Virus record (IMG/VR): IMGVR_UViG_3300042860_003432
Source: an uncultured virus (IMG/VR IMGVR_UViG_3300042860_003432)
Taxonomy: Duplodnaviria > Heunggongvirae > Uroviricota > Caudoviricetes
DNA length: 64,000 nucleotides
Strand: one strand, 5' to 3'
The position numbers were made by a program, and so were the translations under genes. Below are positions 24,079-58,182 of this stretch, piece by piece. The number at the start of each line of letters is the position of its first letter. The first letter of the stretch is position 1. The notes below the pieces were generated by a model. It did not search any database, was not told the DNA's origin, and saw nothing but the letters and a program-made list of their open reading frames with translations.

Positions 24079-26142
24079 TTAGGCAGTTGCTTTAGACAAA
24101 AACTTCTTGTTGAGCGTATGAGCAATCTGCACAACATTCTTTACATCAATGAAATGCGAATCTTTGCCGTACATGCTCTTGAAATTCTTTACATTATTAT
24201 CCGTATTATATTTATCCGCTTCAACATAATAACTGATTACTTCTGTGCCCTTCTCCATCATCTTGCGAACTTGCTTGCGTGTATGGTTGGATGCAATTGT
24301 ATCAACATAAACAATATTGCCAATATTGAACGCAGGCTCACCGTCGGAAATATTCACAAAGTACGAGTCAGATTCATATGTAGATTGCGGAATATGCTCC
24401 AGAATAGCCTGAAACGCCAGACCTTCTGGAGTAGAACCCGAAGGAAAAAGAAGCGGGAATAGGCTGGTGATCTTGGTAAAATTGTCTTTTCTGGAATCAT
24501 ATGCGATTACCACATAAGGAAGTTCACTTTGTCTGGTGCTTAGTCTGACTCCACTTCTAAAAGAAATAGATACAGAGACGTTGTTGATCATACTAGCAGC
24601 CTTGGCAATAGCGACGAGGGTAGAGATTGTGTTTTCCCACTTGCTGCTCATTGAACTAGAGGCATCAACAGAAATATGTAGATGAACATTCTTGTACTTA
24701 TCTACGCTGGTCTGATAGAACAGGTTTTCGTTCTGATAGCCAATAGAAGCAATCAGTCGCTTGTCAATTCTACCACTATCCTGTCGGGTAAACTTTGTAG
24801 TCTTGACTTCGTTTCGGATTTGTAGGCGGCGACCAAGCATTGTACCAATAGCAATTCCACTACGCACTCCGCGAGTCCCCATCATATTTTCTTGTAAGGA
24901 CGTATAGCCGTTGGTATACGGAAACTCGTTGGAGTTCATAAGTTCCTTTGTAAGATTAGTAACAACGATACACTCAACGGGAGGAATACCATCTTCTCCG
25001 CCAACGACTTCGATATTGACGCCACTCTTTTCAAGTGTATTCAACTTACTGATAACCTTGCTCTTGAAAGGAGACACAGCAGCGGTTCTGTTGATAAAAG
25101 ACTCTTGCTTCTTGATAATTTTTTCAATAGCAGCCATCTTCTTATCGGTCAAAACTTTTTTCTCTGCCTTGGCAGGCTTATCGGACTTTTCATTATCCGT
25201 ATCCTCTTTGTCTCCATCGCCAGTATTGTCGGCATCATCCGAGTCGTCTTCGCCATTAGCGTCATCGCCGTCCCCCGAATCATCGGAATCTGGAATACTA
25301 TCCACCGAATCCTCGGTTCCGCCAAGGAAATCAGAAGAAGAATCATCACCGTCTTCTGACTTGGTGCTATTCTTTTGAGAAGAATTGGAGTTATTGTGAC
25401 CATCAATCACATTCTTGATAATCTCTTCGACGATCTCCATAGAAAGATCTCGCCTGCTCACAGCAGTAGAAAGTTCATTTCTAAGAATGTTCTTAACATC
25501 CAGCATCTCCGTAATCTTGCGAAGACCAGGCAAAGCATCTGGATCGTAGTTCTTATTTACAAGGTTTGTAAAATGAAACTTATAATTGCTAAGAGTAGGA
25601 GTACGATAGTTGTCAGACTGAATAGCCTGACCAATCTCAGGAAGATTGAAATATCTATCATACAAGGCGTGATAATAACCACGATAGCCAGGAGCAATCT
25701 GATATGCCCAAGCATCAATGTATCTATCTTCAACGACGTTGAGAATATACTTACAAAGTTCGCCAATATCGTTGTGGTTCATCAAACCGTTGGCGGATTT
25801 GACAAGATTATTGGGAACCTTGCCCCACAGCGTCTTGATAAGAGAAAAGTCAGACTTTACGATGTGAGCGGCTTCGTGTAGAGCAATACCAACGGTAGGA
25901 TCAAACTCACCCTTGGAGATTTCGCCTCCAATATACACAACCTTGCCATCAGTCATTGACGTACTCTTTTCTGCAAAACGAACAGGAATGTTCTTGCCGG
26001 TAAGAATATACACAAAATTACTGACCGCACGGCGGTACTCAGACAACTTGATAAGTCCGTATGTAGTATCTACATCCAACTTTTCTTTAGAAAAGTCCTC
26101 ACCAAGCCAGAACTTGGAATACTCTGCGTATTTCTTTTTCAT
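24079..26142 (-). CDS. vWA-domain protein with N-terminal HExxH domain (CobT-like MoxR partner)
   Basis: LHEAAH, NVVEDRYID, acidic linker, MIDAS DASSSM, TPEG, ISDGEP. Confidence 0.85.
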   Translation of the reverse strand: MKKKYAEYSKFWLGEDFSKEKLDVDTTYGLIKLSEYRRAVSNFVYILTGKNIPVRFAEKSTSMTDGKVVYIGGEISKGEFDPTVGIALHEAAHIVKSDFSLIKTLWGKVPNNLVKSANGLMNHNDIGELCKYILNVVEDRYIDAWAYQIAPGYRGYYHALYDRYFNLPEIGQAIQSDNYRTPTLSNYKFHFTNLVNKNYDPDALPGLRKITEMLDVKNILRNELSTAVSRRDLSMEIVEEIIKNVIDGHNNSNSSQKNSTKSEDGDDSSSDFLGGTEDSVDSIPDSDDSGDGDDANGEDDSDDADNTGDGDKEDTDNEKSDKPAKAEKKVLTDKKMAAIEKIIKKQESFINRTAAVSPFKSKVISKLNTLEKSGVNIEVVGGEDGIPPVECIVVTNLTKELMNSNEFPYTNGYTSLQENMMGTRGVRSGIAIGTMLGRRLQIRNEVKTTKFTRQDSGRIDKRLIASIGYQNENLFYQTSVDKYKNVHLHISVDASSSMSSKWENTISTLVAIAKAASMINNVSVSISFRSGVRLSTRQSELPYVVIAYDSRKDNFTKITSLFPLLFPSGSTPEGLAFQAILEHIPQSTYESDSYFVNISDGEPAFNIGNIVYVDTIASNHTRKQVRKMMEKGTEVISYYVEADKYNTDNNVKNFKSMYGKDSHFIDVKNVVQIAHTLNKKFLSKATA

Positions 26143-26144
26143 TA

Positions 26145-26912
26145 TTAGAAGGGGGTGCTGCCGTCAGGAGTATTGGCGGTAGCGGTATAAAGATTGTTGT
26201 TGGTCTCGGTGCTGATATACTTTTGCACAACCTGCTTTACCAGAGTACGTTCGGAATCAAGTCCACCATCATCCGGATAATCGGGATAAATAACCATATC
26301 AGCAAGTTCTGTGAGGTTGAATCCATCGACGGTAAGTTCGGCCATTTCCTTGACGCTACGAGTAGAAATGAACTTACTCAACTTGCCCTGAGAAGCAAAC
26401 TCGCGGGTAGCAGCAGCAATTTCCGTAACCGCCAGCATGGTGTTCATATTGGCATCGGGGCAGTGGGTCTTGATGAGTTCCATCTCTGTATTCTGCGAAA
26501 GAATATCAACCTCAATCTTGACGGTGAAACGATCAAGTAAAGCCTTGTCCATCACGCGGGTAGCGGTATATTCGTTGCCAATGTTGGTGGTTGCGATAAA
26601 ACATACCCCATCAGCAACTCTCACAACTTTTCCACCCGATTCGTCCAGTCGCAAATACTTTTGATTGTCGAGCACTGGCATTAAAATATTCATAGCGTCG
26701 GGATGGGCTCTGCTCAACTCGTCGAGTAGAATAATTGAATTCGGTGTAGAGATGGCCTTCACAAATGGAGATTCTTGGAAGAATGTCCCAGTTTCTTTGG
26801 AGAATTGAGTATTTCCAATTAGCGTAGCTCGGGCATCTTGCGTACTCCCAAGGTTAATGGCCATAAATGGCCGATGTTTCTTATAAGTTACTTTGTATGT
26901 TTTGTTTTTCAC
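26145..26912 (-). CDS. MoxR/CobS-like AAA+ ATPase, C-terminal part
   Basis: RPFMAINLG, Walker B ILLDELSRA, ATTNIG, ALLDRF; likely GTG start MKNKTYKVTYKKH overlapping the endonuclease 3' end. Confidence 0.85.
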   Translation of the reverse strand: MKNKTYKVTYKKHRPFMAINLGSTQDARATLIGNTQFSKETGTFFQESPFVKAISTPNSIILLDELSRAHPDAMNILMPVLDNQKYLRLDESGGKVVRVADGVCFIATTNIGNEYTATRVMDKALLDRFTVKIEVDILSQNTEMELIKTHCPDANMNTMLAVTEIAAATREFASQGKLSKFISTRSVKEMAELTVDGFNLTELADMVIYPDYPDDGGLDSERTLVKQVVQKYISTETNNNLYTATANTPDGSTPF

Positions 26913-27486
26913 GACGATATATTTCCCATCTTTTTTTTGTTGCTTCTGCAATATTTTTTTTACCTTCTTTTGTCAAGAATGATTTTCCTTTTCTTGCATC
27001 ACTAATTTTTTGTCTTGTCTTTTTTGAATAAACTTTTCCTTTATTTGCTTCACTTGCTCGTTTTTTTTGATATTCGGATTGAGATTTTCCGAACATTGGA
27101 TTTGACTCTCCTTGATTGTGTTCTGTTATTTTTTTTCTATATTCTTCGTTTTTAAATGCTCGCTTAACTGCTCGGCTTATTTTTTTTCGTGTTTCTTCTT
27201 TGGTGACTATCTTTGGTCGTAAACCACTGTTTCTTTGTAAATTGTATGAGTTTTGGTCATTTATCGCATTGTATTTATCAATCCAGTATATCTCTCGTTC
27301 CAATAGGTTTGATAAATCTTTACCCACCACAACTTCCAGAGTTTCTTTTACGAAGTTATTTTTGCCGTATTTTTTTATCGCGGATTTAAGAGCAAGTCCA
27401 GACCCGTAATAATGTGGGTTGTTTCTGCTGTCTTTTCCGATGTAATAGTTTCCATTAAGAATATTAGTAGTTTTGTATATTATCAT
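26881..27486 (-). CDS. GIY-YIG homing endonuclease with NUMOD3-like repeats
   Basis: MIIYKTTN..NGNYYIGK, YYGSG, E.YWI, SYN; ETRKKIS/NPMFGK repeats. Confidence 0.92.
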   Translation of the reverse strand: MIIYKTTNILNGNYYIGKDSRNNPHYYGSGLALKSAIKKYGKNNFVKETLEVVVGKDLSNLLEREIYWIDKYNAINDQNSYNLQRNSGLRPKIVTKEETRKKISRAVKRAFKNEEYRKKITEHNQGESNPMFGKSQSEYQKKRASEANKGKVYSKKTRQKISDARKGKSFLTKEGKKNIAEATKKRWEIYRREKQNIQSNL

Positions 27487-27525
27487 GACATATATAAATA
27501 TAAGTCAGTAGAATATTCCACGCCA

Positions 27526-27825
27526 TTATTTTAGTTCTTCTGTTTTTATAATAGTGATATTTTCTGTAGCCTTGAGTTCGTTAAGGCGTTCTTCCGTAAC
27601 CTCTTCTTCAATAGTTTCAGAAAGGGCTTCAACCAAGCATTGGACCGCGAAGGTTTTCCCATGTCCTGTTGGACCAACAATAAGAATATTCTTGCCACGC
27701 AGAGCACTGCGAACAAGATACTTCCACTTGATATCCTTCATATATAGCTTGCTGGGCTTGATGTCAGCAGACTGGTCGATAAACGTCTTGGTGTCGGTGG
27801 GCATATTCTTTTTGGTCTTATTCAT
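27526..27825 (-). CDS. MoxR/CobS-like AAA+ ATPase, N-terminal part
   Basis: RGKNILIVGPTGHGKT Walker A, then an acidic tail and stop. Confidence 0.85.
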   Translation of the reverse strand: MNKTKKNMPTDTKTFIDQSADIKPSKLYMKDIKWKYLVRSALRGKNILIVGPTGHGKTFAVQCLVEALSETIEEEVTEERLNELKATENITIIKTEELK

Positions 27826-27833
27826 ATGTATGT

Positions 27834-27862
27834 ACTATGGTACACTTTTTATATGAAGTCAA
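27834..27862 (-). promoter_or_regulatory. Sigma70-type promoter
   Basis: TTGACT-N17-CATAGT just upstream of the AAA N-part ATG. Confidence 0.55.
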
Positions 27863-27863
27863 T

Positions 27864-27894
27864 AAAAAACCCCACATTTTTGTGTGGGGTCTTT
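27864..27894 (-). terminator. Intrinsic terminator
   Basis: ACCCCACA/TGTGGGGT hairpin with T-tract on the minus strand. Confidence 0.75.
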
Positions 27895-27917
27895 AAGTTG
27901 TTGATTATTAAGACTTA

Positions 27918-28349
27918 TCAATAATCGCTTCCAGCGCCAGCGAGCTTTTCATAAATCTCGTCGTCTATGTTAGATACTATGGATTTTTGATCTATAGTGT
28001 CTCCAGCATTAAATAATATCTCGCTTGTTTGATTTCCTTCTGCATCAAACACATATGTATCTTCTTTTGCAGTTACTATAACCTTAGTTATTTCGTATCC
28101 ACTTCCCGGATCATGTGTTCCAAATTCATGGTCAAAGCTCGCATCGGCATATTCTCCTTCGGCGTATACTTCAACATTGACTTCTATTTGTTCAGGTAAA
28201 TTTTTTCCTAGTTTCTTTGGATCTATGTCTACCATCGTATCAAATGTTGTATCTACGCTTGCAGGAACTCTGCGTTTTTCGTTCAAATGCTCAAGCACCA
28301 ATTTTTTGTGCTTTTCAAATGTGTCGTTGATTATGCTTTTTTGTTTCAT
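27918..28349 (-). CDS. Hypothetical protein
   Basis: N-terminus TFEKHKKLVLE shared with 8419-9411. Confidence 0.7.
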   Translation of the reverse strand: MKQKSIINDTFEKHKKLVLEHLNEKRRVPASVDTTFDTMVDIDPKKLGKNLPEQIEVNVEVYAEGEYADASFDHEFGTHDPGSGYEITKVIVTAKEDTYVFDAEGNQTSEILFNAGDTIDQKSIVSNIDDEIYEKLAGAGSDY

Positions 28350-28350
28350 A

Positions 28351-29058
28351 TTATGCTTTCTTTTCTTTTAGAGCAGGAGTGTCTTTTAGTTTTACAGATA
28401 GCTTGTCTGGGCTTTCTGTGCTTTTATCGTGTTTTAGATATGCGGATTTGGCGTCTGCTTTATCTTTCAATACCTTATCTACAATCTTTTCAATCTTGTC
28501 AACGATGCTTCCGCCGAGGGCTGGAGCAACGTCTTTGTTGATAGGAGCATTTTCTTTATCTACTTTCTCTTCCGCCTTTACCGTAGTATCATCTGCTATT
28601 TCAACTTGAGTTTCTTCATCGGCATCATCCATCTTGTCGGCTTCATTGGCTTCTTCTTTTTCGGATGGCTTCTTACCAAATCCTTTTAGACTCTTATCAT
28701 ATGCTTTTTGGACATATGTCTTATCTGAACTTTCAGCATGTTGTTTTACAAGTTCCATTGCTGCTTCAAGAGAAATACCACGAGCAATCTTTCTTTCAGA
28801 TTCATTTGTAATAGACACAACGTCATAGCAATGATCGCAGTTTTTGCTTAGTTGAACTTCTTGGTTGCCTTTCATTCCTGCGGTTTTTCCTGTGCCACGG
28901 ATTTTCATTACGTTGGCGTCCTTGCCCATTGCCTTGGTTAGTGCTTCTTCGCCAGTCAAATCCTTCTTATCTGATTGAATAGGTGTACCAAACTGATTGT
29001 TGGTGATTTCTTGCAATACTAACTTTTTGATGGCTTTTTTTAGAAGTTCACGATTCAT
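28351..29058 (-). CDS. Hypothetical charged protein, possible internal head protein
   Basis: MNRELLKKAIKKLVLQE start; TATTTATA upstream. Confidence 0.7.
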   Translation of the reverse strand: MNRELLKKAIKKLVLQEITNNQFGTPIQSDKKDLTGEEALTKAMGKDANVMKIRGTGKTAGMKGNQEVQLSKNCDHCYDVVSITNESERKIARGISLEAAMELVKQHAESSDKTYVQKAYDKSLKGFGKKPSEKEEANEADKMDDADEETQVEIADDTTVKAEEKVDKENAPINKDVAPALGGSIVDKIEKIVDKVLKDKADAKSAYLKHDKSTESPDKLSVKLKDTPALKEKKA

Positions 29059-56034: not shown

Positions 56035-56523
56035 TTAGAACTGTAGGATGCAGTAATCCATCGTCAGTGTAACTTCGATTGTCATTGCTTCGGCATTTGC
56101 CCAGTCCATGCTTTGGAAATTTACCGAGCTAGGAAATGCACCTTTCAAGTCCCACTTCTCAACAATGTCGCCAACAGGACCAAGAACTTGAATCTGGACA
56201 TCCTTCTTGTACATATCAGCATATCCGTTACGACCAGTAACAGATTCGTGAGCAAGGCGAACCCATTCCATCACAGCCTGTGCGCCAGATGGCACGATTG
56301 GATCATATAATGTAATAGAAAGATCTTGCCATTCACTCTTTCCTTTGAGTTTACGTTTCAAATTGATATGATCTAGAGTAATTGAATTGTTCTGTATGCT
56401 TGGACGACCTGTAGCTTTGATTAGGTATGCAGGAATGCCGTCGATGTTCATAATGAAACGGTTTTGTACCTTGGGCTCGAAGGCCGTAAAGAATATTTGA
56501 TTTTGATCTAGTAGCTCTGCCAT
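56035..56523 (-). CDS. Tail tube protein (gp19-like)
   Basis: FEPKVQNRF, W.D..ITLYDPI, VMEW, YKKD, W.LKGAFP. Confidence 0.9.
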   Translation of the reverse strand: MAELLDQNQIFFTAFEPKVQNRFIMNIDGIPAYLIKATGRPSIQNNSITLDHINLKRKLKGKSEWQDLSITLYDPIVPSGAQAVMEWVRLAHESVTGRNGYADMYKKDVQIQVLGPVGDIVEKWDLKGAFPSSVNFQSMDWANAEAMTIEVTLTMDYCILQF

Positions 56524-56652: not shown

Positions 56653-58182
56653 ATGGCCAGACCCAAGAAAAACCCAGACTTTGTAGAGCTAAAATGTAAA
56701 ACTTGCAATACAGATTTCAGAGTGAAATGGCAGAAACGAAACAAGCAGAAGTATTGCTGTAAATCTTGTTCTAACAAAGACCCAGAAGTGTTAGCAAAAA
56801 TGCGAGCGTCGCAGGTAGAAACCTCACTAAAAAAGTACGGCACGGATCATCCTATGAAGACTTCTGAAGTTGTAAATAATTTCAAGAACTCTATGATGAC
56901 CAAATATGGTGTAGAACACGCATTGCAATCAAAAGCTATACTTGATAAAGCCAAATATACCAATGTACAAAACTATGGTGTAGAAAATGTATTGTCGTCA
57001 AAAAGTCCTGTAAGACAGCGGATAATGGAAACTTGGATTGAAAAGTACGGTGTGGACAATCCCGGCAAATCTAGAGATGTTATACAAAAACGAAGTAAAC
57101 TCAAACAAGAGAACCATTATGAAAAACTAAAAACTCTGTTTAATTCGCAAAATGTAAAGTGGTTATGCAAACAAGAGGACTATGCGGGCTATCATTTCTC
57201 GCATAGATACAAGTTTAATTGTAAAAAATGTAATAATGGATTCGAGTCTACAGTATATGTGCCAACAGATGTGTTCTGTGAACTATGCCATCCTGAAAAG
57301 AAAGAAACCGCAGAAACTGGTTTGCAAGAGTTCTTGGTGTCTGAAGTAAAGGGTAAAACTATACTACGAAATAATAGAGTTGTGTTGGATGGCAAGGAGC
57401 TTGATTTTTACATCCCCGATCTTTCGTTCGCTATAGAATATAACGGGTTGTATTGGCACAGAGCCAGCCATCCCAGAATGTCAAAAAACTATCATCTGGA
57501 AAAGACTGAGAAGTGTGCCGAGAAAAATATACACCTCATTCATATACTTGAAAGCGAATGGAAGCATAAGCAGAATATTGTAAAGTCAATCATACGTCAG
57601 TATGTTGGCGGGCACGTTGCCAAGATCCACGGACGAGAATGCGAAATACGAAAAGTAGACACCAAAGAAAAGAATGAGTTCTTGAACAAGTGTCATATGC
57701 AAGGTGAGGACAAATCATCTGTCGCATATGGCTTATACTATAAAAACTCCTTGGTCAGCATAATGACGTTTTGTAGAAGTAGATTTGACCGAAAAGTTGA
57801 ATGGGAAATATCAAGGTTCTGCAATGCGTTGAATACTCGTGTGCACGGTGGAGCAACAAAGTTGTTTAGTATATTCCTATTGGATTATAAGCCAAAGAGC
57901 GTAGTAAGCTACTCTGACCGCAGATTGTTCTCTGGAGACTTGTATTCTAAGCTAGGAATGACCTTTGAAGGAAATACAGCACAAGGTTATCATTATGTAT
58001 CTCCCGACTTTAGTACAGTATTCAACCGACAGATGTTCCAAAAATCTAAACTGGCAAAAAAGTTAAAAACATTTGATCCCAACTTATCTGAATGGGAAAA
58101 TATGAAACTGAACGGATTTGACCGTATATGGGATTGCGGTCATACAAAATGGATATGGAGAAGCTCTACAACTTCTCAATAA
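56653..58182 (+). CDS. Putative homing endonuclease (Zn ribbon, KYG repeats, PD-(D/E)xK, Hef-like C-terminal domain)
   Basis: KKYG/TKYGV/EKYGV repeats, ELDFY...IEYNGLYWH, ESEW, WEISRFC, SYSDRR, IWDCG. Confidence 0.8.
   Translation: MARPKKNPDFVELKCKTCNTDFRVKWQKRNKQKYCCKSCSNKDPEVLAKMRASQVETSLKKYGTDHPMKTSEVVNNFKNSMMTKYGVEHALQSKAILDKAKYTNVQNYGVENVLSSKSPVRQRIMETWIEKYGVDNPGKSRDVIQKRSKLKQENHYEKLKTLFNSQNVKWLCKQEDYAGYHFSHRYKFNCKKCNNGFESTVYVPTDVFCELCHPEKKETAETGLQEFLVSEVKGKTILRNNRVVLDGKELDFYIPDLSFAIEYNGLYWHRASHPRMSKNYHLEKTEKCAEKNIHLIHILESEWKHKQNIVKSIIRQYVGGHVAKIHGRECEIRKVDTKEKNEFLNKCHMQGEDKSSVAYGLYYKNSLVSIMTFCRSRFDRKVEWEISRFCNALNTRVHGGATKLFSIFLLDYKPKSVVSYSDRRLFSGDLYSKLGMTFEGNTAQGYHYVSPDFSTVFNRQMFQKSKLAKKLKTFDPNLSEWENMKLNGFDRIWDCGHTKWIWRSSTTSQ

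Follow-up and report, generated by a model that had tools for sequence, protein, structure and literature searches.

How might an ATPase gene withstand interruption by a nuclease gene when neither an intron nor an intein is found to take the interruption out? This question is raised by a 64,000-nucleotide (nt) stretch of DNA from an uncultured virus of the Caudoviricetes (IMG/VR record IMGVR_UViG_3300042860_003432; this whole stretch is hereafter called the window), where a MoxR/CobS-type AAA+ ATPase is encoded by two open reading frames (ORFs) on either side of a GIY-YIG homing endonuclease gene. We consider it probable that a mobile nuclease cassette with tail-coding ends split the ATPase gene into two polypeptides, and that pairing of the tails makes the insertion near-neutral without splicing.

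The split gene and its tails

The ATPase gene lies on the minus strand, as do all parts of the locus described here, and is interrupted between helix alpha1 and strand beta2. The N-half gene (27526..27825; 99 amino acids [aa]) encodes a variable N-terminus, beta1, the Walker A motif GPTGHGKT, alpha1, and a tail before its stop codon; it gives weak matches to P-loop families and is homologous to the N-terminal ~69 residues of intact proteins. A 39-nt spacer (27487..27525) separates this stop from the ATG of the free-standing endonuclease gene (26881..27486; 201 aa), whose 3′ end is overlapped by 32 nt of the C-half 5′ end. The C-half gene (26145..26912; 255 aa, GTG start) encodes an extension, beta2, Walker B (IILLDE), sensor and Arg residues, and a lid, and matches AAA_5 (E 7e-12) and phrog_249 (E 2e-24). 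An initial annotation, made from the sequence alone, had placed the two ATPase ORFs around a GIY-YIG gene, and its coordinates and layout all hold. Taken together, the Walker A motif of the N-half and the Walker B, sensor, Arg residues, and lid domain of the C-half make up a complete AAA+ set. The C-half family profile matched midasin AAA domains (3e-38), CobS (2e-12), NorQ, and CbbQ in the PDB, and by these similarities the split protein is a MoxR/CobS-type AAA+ ATPase that is also midasin-like; assignment as a CobS equivalog was ruled out (TIGR01650, 24 bits versus a cut-off of 558). The 201-aa nuclease matched NUMOD3 (31.9 bits, cut-off 20.4), phrog_314 “homing endonuclease” (E 5e-30), and TIGR01453 (59 bits, cut-off 56.05), with Pfam GIY-YIG at 17.8 bits, under its cut-off of 22.6. 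These matches assign it to the I-TevI/Seg-type GIY-YIG homing endonucleases, with a catalytic domain and NUMOD3 repeats.

We then compared the locus with intact homologues. A tblastn and IMG/VR survey returned 23 loci, of which 8 were ~100% identical to the window and carried the same split, 14 were uninterrupted (N and C matches contiguous in one frame), and one was odd. With Microcystis phage Mel-JY01 and the 484-kb record LR756508 (loci L001 and L002), the 14 uninterrupted loci gave 16 intact homologues, all of which lack both tails and lead directly from alpha1 into the RPF..NLG strand (beta2). In one uninterrupted locus, L008, the DNA flanking the insertion point matches the window at 91.6% identity on one side and 95.1% on the other, and comparison of the junctions defines an insert of 748 nt (26874..27621) with a GC content of 31%, against 45–48% in the flanking exons. 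The insert encodes the 31-aa C-terminal tail of the N-half (27529..27621; SETIEEEV..TEELK; net charge −6, GC 33%) and, in another frame of the endonuclease 3′ end, the 12–13-aa N-terminal extension of the C-half (26874..26912; V/M-KNKTYKVTYKKH; net charge +5, GC 23%). Because intact homologues run from alpha1 straight into RPF..NLG, both segments are, by this comparison, specific to the insert, and the alignment thereby confirmed the initial suggestion that both extensions are insertions. No fused form carrying the tail was found in a protein search restricted to longer proteins, which the tool itself counts as weak evidence. The odd locus (L023, 3795-4595 of a 96.7-kb contig) has no insert and shows two frame changes in its ATPase matches; a matching database protein, P0017 (81 aa), stops early, and the locus may be a broken copy or an assembly error.

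The N-tail recurs widely. A search of 5.8 billion proteins, limited to lengths of 54–174 aa, gave 17 matches, 15 of them tailed N-halves of 91–104 aa that are 52–99% identical to that of the window; the other two, which appear to be frame-shifted, have no tail. Searching 1.84 billion representatives with a profile yielded 269 matches, and among the 150 listed, 19 short proteins (82–228 aa) matched through profile positions 85–99 and then ended, while in every protein of at least 297 aa the match ended at position 73 or before. We aligned 33 distinct N-halves, 37–84% identical to that of the window. All end in the same tail pattern, over a length of 27–37 aa (median 31): a short hydrophobic strand, a helix capped by T, S, D, or N (consensus VTEEELxxLK), a turn of 4–5 residues, and a second, alternating strand. 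Recurrence of this length and pattern in 33 aligned sequences is far beyond chance. DNA was examined for four lineages of N-halves (the window, L034, L035, and L131). A metagenome scan with the tail alignment confirmed at least two loci, one of which (L041) is the L034 contig, and gave no new lineage; an IMG/VR scan with the basic-tail subgroup confirmed no locus; and an IMG/VR scan with the diverged N-halves gave no further split locus among the best 80 of 411 relatives, of which 79 were uninterrupted and one ran off its contig. An N-fragment of the same ATPase family, P0136 (121 aa), ends after the P-loop Gly-Lys with ~27 residues starting Cys-Leu-x-x-Asp-Thr, which by eye resemble a short intein head of an atypically split kind; a second fracture site, produced by another mechanism, may thus exist in this family.

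The C-half extension is likewise shared. All 13 split C-halves (234–268 aa) carry it directly before beta2, with the pattern M-K-(N)-K-[TK]-Y-K-[VI]-[TK]-Y-K-K or MxxKKFLVEY, that is, with a YKVTY or FLVEY strand. At the position of the window's GTG (26912), P0167, L035, and L131 have an ATG; the C-half ATG of L034 is preceded, nine codons upstream, by an in-frame stop; and the internal Met of the window (RPF-M-AINLG) is V, S, I, L, Y, F, or C in the others. From the conserved ATG position, the upstream stop, and the non-conserved internal Met, we conclude that the extension is translated. A C-half start at ATG 26868, which would leave no extension, was rejected, as this Met is not conserved and relatives have an ATG at the GTG position.

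Next, we examined selection in the six pairs formed by the four DNA lineages. Over 31 tail codons, the ratio of nonsynonymous to synonymous substitution rates (dN/dS) was 0.26, 0.28, 0.51, 0.32, 0.16, and 0.18, at proportions of synonymous differences (pS) of 0.45–0.70. Such low ratios at such pS indicate that the N-tail is constrained as protein and not as DNA. The 12 codons of the C-extension are too few for a selection test. For the N-half core, dN/dS was 0.17–0.39; the C-half core differed between split lineages by a proportion of nonsynonymous differences (pN) of 0.08–0.10 at pS 0.79–0.99; and the nuclease gene had dN/dS of 0.05–0.09 against the copies in L035 and L131. Since both halves and the nuclease gene show strong purifying selection, none of the three appears to be a pseudogene.

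We also looked for signs of splicing, and the view that a free-standing GIY-YIG gene split the ATPase gene without an intron or intein is supported. An Rfam E-value scan of 25900-28100 found no intron family at E up to 10; its 10 weak matches all lie at 27789-27996, far below gathering scores, and none is an intron. Outside the nuclease ORF there is room for 39 nt on the 5′ side and, on the 3′ side, a 32-nt overlap rather than a spacer. Inteins begin with Cys or Ser, end in His-Asn, are followed by Cys, Ser, or Thr at +1, and at their smallest have roughly 130 aa. No Hint or intein Pfam match was found at the locus, the C-extension ends in KKH followed by Arg without such a boundary pattern, and the tails total ~44 aa. 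An RNA library, which may contain DNA, gave a 151-nt contig that spans the nuclease 3′ end and part of the C-half core (26811-26959) unbroken and without joints; two 151-nt contigs of the library cover parts of the locus, and neither reaches the N-half, the spacer, most of the nuclease gene, or the 5′ junction. At an A8 homopolymer near the nuclease 3′ end (26930), this contig has two extra bases, which would shift the nuclease frame and may reflect a variant, an error, or slippage.

Movement of the cassette

To either side of the insert, the sequence is a mosaic. A co-conversion tract (26565..27702), recognized by a drop in identity to L008, comprises the insert with ~80 nt of upstream exon and ~305 nt of downstream exon from a divergent donor. 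Identity to L008 is 60–77% within the tract, on both sides of the insert (the outer limits being about 27702 and 26565), and 90–100% outside it, jumping to 97–100% past 26565. The C-half protein reflects the same boundary, with residues 14–110 being 81–97% identical to other split forms against 68% to L008, and residues 125–235 being 100% identical to L008 against 41–81% to split forms. Quick IQ-TREE trees (LG+G4) were built from 46 hand-chosen rows, of which 15 were split (four DNA loci plus 11 of the 13 C-halves taken from databases) and 31 intact (11 loci plus 20 database matches). The cassette-proximal tree required three changes between split and intact states and placed 11 of the 15 split rows in one group (Shimodaira-Hasegawa-like approximate likelihood ratio test [SH-aLRT] 93). 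The distal, or backbone, tree required eight, at least five of them forced by branches with support of at least 95. In 500 label shuffles, a count as low as that of the distal tree, or lower, came up once. A second near-identical backbone pair, P0178 (split) and P0233 (intact), joined by the distal part with SH-aLRT 99, belongs to a lineage far from that of the window. These trees and the mosaic are, at the sequence level, what homing with co-conversion leaves behind when it reaches several backbone lineages. That the cassette was instead lost precisely and repeatedly is also conceivable.

The nuclease within the tails has itself changed. Loci L035-39 and L131 hold copies 73–74% identical to that of the window. 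In L034 (3622-4371, minus strand, of a 297-kb contig), the same tails flank a different GIY-YIG gene of 249 aa, on the strand opposite to the ATPase halves; it matches LEM-3_GIY-YIG at 27.0 bits, which is at the cut-off, and phrog_314 (E 3e-13), with a BLASTP E of 0.17 against the window's nuclease. The same site and tails around an unrelated GIY-YIG gene point to endonuclease turnover at one site, with tails that do not depend on one nuclease. Among 72 further IMG/VR loci that carry nuclease relatives, L131 is the only one in which that gene lies in this ATPase gene. We scanned the other 71, whose GIY-YIG genes are up to 45% identical, with a hidden Markov model of the tail; the best E was 0.067, and positive controls were found in 4 of 4 cases. 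The initial annotation had suggested looking for the same tail pair beside endonucleases in other genes, and 0 of these 71 loci has the tail; in the loci surveyed, the pair is particular to this host gene rather than a portable tag. The uninterrupted allele of L008 is a ready substrate for a homing or cleavage test. In L035 and L036 (2621-3226, plus strand), another GIY-YIG gene, SegE-like at 24.5 bits (cut-off 25), lies immediately upstream of the N-half; the near-identical L037-L039 lack it and have a 297-aa ORF there instead.

How the tails may work

We propose the following mechanism. The cassette would consist of a tail-coding 5′ end, an I-TevI-type GIY-YIG gene, and a 3′ end that holds, in another frame, a start codon and a short basic strand, and it would have inserted in the alpha1/beta2 loop of a CobS/MoxR-type AAA+ gene of a T4-like phage. 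The gene would then be expressed as two polypeptides, an N-half (beta1, P-loop, alpha1) with a 31-residue tail and a C-half that starts with the insert strand KTYKVTYKK before beta2. By pairing, the tails would assemble both pieces of a single Rossmann-like core and keep them together, so that the insertion would be nearly neutral without RNA or protein splicing. Presumably, the nuclease cuts the uninterrupted allele during co-infection, and repair would copy the whole cassette, including the tails.

AlphaFold2 (AF2) models of the separate halves bear on this proposal. The N-half alone had a mean predicted local distance difference test score (pLDDT) of 80, with the tail at 71–76, a helix at residues 78–86, and unassigned flanks. 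The N-tail had been read initially as strand-helix-strand; AF2 recovers the helix and leaves the flanking strands unassigned, as would be expected of unpaired strands. The C-half alone had a pLDDT of 81, with residues 1–10 below 50 (disordered) and beta2 at 16–20. In these models, the cut would fall at the edge strand of the core sheet, and beta1 of the N-half would have to insert mid-sheet into the C-half, which would leave the halves interlocked in any case. With the C-extension continuous with edge strand beta2 and the N-tail directly after alpha1, both tails are predicted to leave the core at the same point and so to be placed to meet. Both strands have an alternating hydrophobic pattern, which suggests that they share a small sheet. 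Judged from these patterns and by analogy with known systems, the tails probably pair with each other or with the other half and let the halves work without splicing. A search for look-alikes of the tail in the ESM Atlas gave a feature score of 0.78; the structural matches, for a model of low confidence, were generic beta-alpha-beta units and yielded no lead.

The tails had also been described as charge-complementary, and as possible parts of a split docking domain brought by the element. Complementarity holds for the window (−6/+5) and its clade and is not general: the C-extension is positive in all 13 cases, and the N-tail is net negative in 26 of 33, neutral in one, and positive in six. As to a docking domain, the insert-specific, conserved, and selected tails that move with the cassette support the idea in part, and physical docking is what we infer. 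In a single complex prediction, run without controls, N-tail residues 66-99 with the whole C-half gave ipSAE values of 0.02 and 0.01 (mark 0.32), a result that counts neither way for binding. We would put forward only tentatively, as rather less than an even bet, the more specific proposal that the tails together make a single small, autonomous fold (the N-half giving strand-helix-strand and the C-half one strand), a sequence-conserved “split-protein zipper” that travels with the nuclease gene and has let a GIY-YIG element invade an AAA+ core beside the P-loop helix in at least five backbone lineages. If true, this would make it the first pair of tails known as a sequence family and not from one case alone, and a natural, very short heterodimerization tag.

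Several points weigh against pairing tails as the explanation. The case for docking of the halves or tails comes from sequence comparison, and in the AF2 models of each half alone the tails are of low confidence or unassigned. Charge complementarity fails for 7 of the 33 N-tails (the six positive and the one neutral). The N-tail dN/dS values are rough, being drawn from 31 codons whose synonymous sites are nearly saturated. For the 18 N-halves that diverge most (P0019-P0041 and P0137), the data are protein sequences, from which an adjoining nuclease gene does not follow, and the RNA-library contig is possibly DNA carry-over. Finally, “docking” may be the wrong word here, as it is for the split ribonucleotide reductase of phage Aeh1 (NrdA-a/NrdA-b): in the part of that study drawn on here, the tails are not needed for heterodimer formation and are needed for higher-order assembly and activity (PMC3045599).

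This precedent leads to the rival with the best prospects, to which we give a modest chance: the tails would be functional but not glue, the interlocked AAA+ core would itself hold the halves together, and the tails would repair ring (hexamer) assembly, nucleotide-site geometry, or contact with a CobT/VWA-like partner. In Aeh1, tail-less NrdA-a and NrdA-b still form the heterodimer, and what is lost, according to the same source, is dimerization of heterodimers together with activity (PMC3045599). The cut in our locus adjoins the P-loop helix, and conservation of the tails fits a role other than glue as well as it fits docking. What favors pairing instead is the shared exit point predicted for the tails and their alternating hydrophobic strands.

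A single origin of the split and its tails within the host gene is unlikely; an example would be an ancestral helix-plus-hairpin insert that was later cut, with nucleases colonizing the gap and the tails being host-derived. Two unrelated GIY-YIG genes in the same gap would make the gap a landing pad, and 0 of the 71 loci elsewhere with related nuclease genes showed the tail beside them. Against such an origin, no uninterrupted protein with the segments was found, either among the listed matches of at least 297 aa, which end at profile position 73 or before, or in the longer-protein search, although this is weak evidence; furthermore, the tails share the insert's low GC content and transferred with the nuclease gene into an L008-like backbone. 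Whatever their first origin, the tails are now, on this evidence, part of the mobile unit.

We regard it as very unlikely that the tails are neutral by-products, formed by read-through to the first stop and by a chance start codon and conserved only through recent spread of one cassette. Both are AT-rich like the nuclease gene (GC 33% and 23%), an A-rich frame yields Lys-rich peptides without selection, and an open run of 31 codons is not rare in such DNA (our estimate is ~0.15). Recent spread sits poorly with a tail pS of 0.45–0.70, near saturation, at which dN/dS is nevertheless 0.16–0.51. Moreover, 33 N-halves down to 37% identity keep a 27–37-aa tail with its hydrophobic and helix-cap pattern, the stop and start positions are kept among split forms, and the tails persist around the unrelated nuclease of L034. 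Removal of the interruption by splicing, whether of a group I intron core overlapping the ORF or of a very small split intein, is the least credible reading and has next to no chance of being right: the nuclease is of a family typical for group I introns (TIGR01453) and P0136 offers at least one N-fragment of this ATPase family with an apparent short intein head (by eye), but the Rfam scan, the 39 nt and 32-nt overlap beside the nuclease ORF, the ~44 aa of tails without intein boundary residues or family match, the conservation of the flanks as protein rather than as RNA helices, and the absence of a joint in the very thin RNA-library data all speak against it.

Genomic context and known systems

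By gene content, the window represents part of a T4-like myovirus genome, with genes for tail sheath, tube, and baseplate proteins, gp32, a RecA/UvsX-like protein, a DnaB-like helicase, both ribonucleotide reductase subunits, a family B DNA polymerase, an RNA ligase, and rIIA. The source record has 68,234 bases and an estimated completeness of 30%, and megablast of window positions 25000-29000 against named phages gave zero matches. Directly before the N-half, at 27834..27890 (minus strand), the upstream gene's hairpin and T-run are followed by a sigma-70-like site (TTGACT-17-CATAGT), which was located by a consensus scan only and is a possible start of the transcription unit. RNA folding around the nuclease start was not significant (z −1.25) and gave no sign of a translation-blocking hairpin like that reported for mobE. 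Downstream of the C-half lies a gene of 687 aa (24079..26142, minus strand), a usual neighbor of the ATPase gene with homologous downstream ORFs in L002 and L131. It had no Pfam, PHROG, or NCBIfam match; from a DxSxS motif (DASSSMS) read by eye, we infer that its product is a von Willebrand A/CobT-like partner of the ATPase. The intact homologue of Mel-JY01 (2065-3747 of L001; 560 aa) has ~270 extra residues N-terminal of the ATPase, and many database homologues of ~400 aa have an N-terminal domain of ~90 aa that the window's protein lacks. A second homing endonuclease gene of 509 aa (56653-58182, plus strand, opposite to the split locus) lies between the tail-tube gene (56035-56523) and the next structural genes; it matches phrog_3339 “homing endonuclease” (E 3e-118), phrog_559 HNH (E 1e-100), and Pfam DUF7487.

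Similar arrangements are known from several systems. Seg genes of T4-like phages are normally intergenic, and co-conversion of flanking markers is known for Seg-mediated intronless homing. The nuclease of the split locus shares with I-TevI and Seg enzymes a GIY-YIG domain, NUMOD3 repeats, and co-conversion of flanks, and unlike Seg genes its gene lies inside a coding sequence without an intron. The closest parallel is nrdA-a/mobE/nrdA-b of Aeh1, where, in the published account as drawn on here, a free-standing nuclease gene likewise splits an enzyme gene between two strands of the core fold without an intron or intein and overlaps the downstream half, and an AT-rich insert gives a C-terminal tail to the first half and an oppositely charged N-terminal tail to the second (PMC3045599). 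The insert-derived tails that NrdA-a and NrdA-b carry are reported there to be essential, activity falling ~2000-fold without them (Crona et al. 2010, PMC3045599). The two cases differ in the nuclease (HNH [MobE] there, GIY-YIG here) and in charge polarity, the first tail being basic and the second acidic in Aeh1. Aeh1 is, as that source presents it, one phage lineage with biochemistry on a ribonucleotide reductase; the present case is an AAA+ ATPase, with 33 N-halves and 13 C-halves compared as sequences alone.

According to a preprint (bioRxiv 10.1101/2022.08.31.505936), the MobA element divides the large subunit of topoisomerase II (T4 genes 39 and 60), and its C- and N-terminal extensions (CTE/NTE) are conserved. 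As described there, near-identical relatives are insert-free, and the nuclease has been replaced (VSR, GIY-YIG) or lost while the tails were kept (10.1101/2022.08.31.505936). Conservation of the insertion site and of both extensions in many phage clades, beside near-identical insert-free phages, is common to MobA and the ATPase locus, as is turnover of the nuclease between tails that are kept. In MobA, however, the extensions are given as ~44 aa each with a translational bypass cassette and a primary HNH nuclease; the ATPase tails have 31 and ~12 aa, and there is no bypass. In “fractured genes,” a split intein and a free-standing endonuclease gene lie between host halves (Dassa et al. 2009, PMC2677866), an order (host N-part with extension, endonuclease gene, extension with host C-part) that matches ours, and electrostatic association of the extensions has been proposed (as cited in PMC3045599). 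Intein halves there ligate the exteins covalently, whereas the segments described here are too short and are without intein boundary residues or a family match.

The splicing-free use of tails that the initial annotation offered as an idea had thus already been published, for MobE/NrdA of Aeh1 (PMC3045599) and for MobA (10.1101/2022.08.31.505936), to judge from the parts of these sources drawn on here. Crona et al. proposed insert-derived tails as a general mechanism (PMC3045599), and the MobA authors propose them as a general strategy (10.1101/2022.08.31.505936). A literature search for a split cobS-type gene or further tail cases gave nothing specific. The concept is known, and the case stands out for how large and divergent its tail family is and for its GIY-YIG nuclease.

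Collectively, these data extend tails in place of splicing from two cases of HNH elements, in a ribonucleotide reductase and a topoisomerase, to a GIY-YIG element in an AAA+ ATPase. This is the kind of further case that, in the part of their paper drawn on here, Crona et al. said similarity searches would struggle to find (PMC3045599). Annotators of phage genomes should not label as pseudogenes short ORFs of the “P-loop only” and “Walker-B only” kind that surround a nuclease gene. The 33 N-tails and 13 C-extensions make up a recognizable sequence family, so comparison can reveal the constraints on them, and, if the tails do pair, the ~31-aa/12-aa pair would be a natural tag for split-protein assembly.

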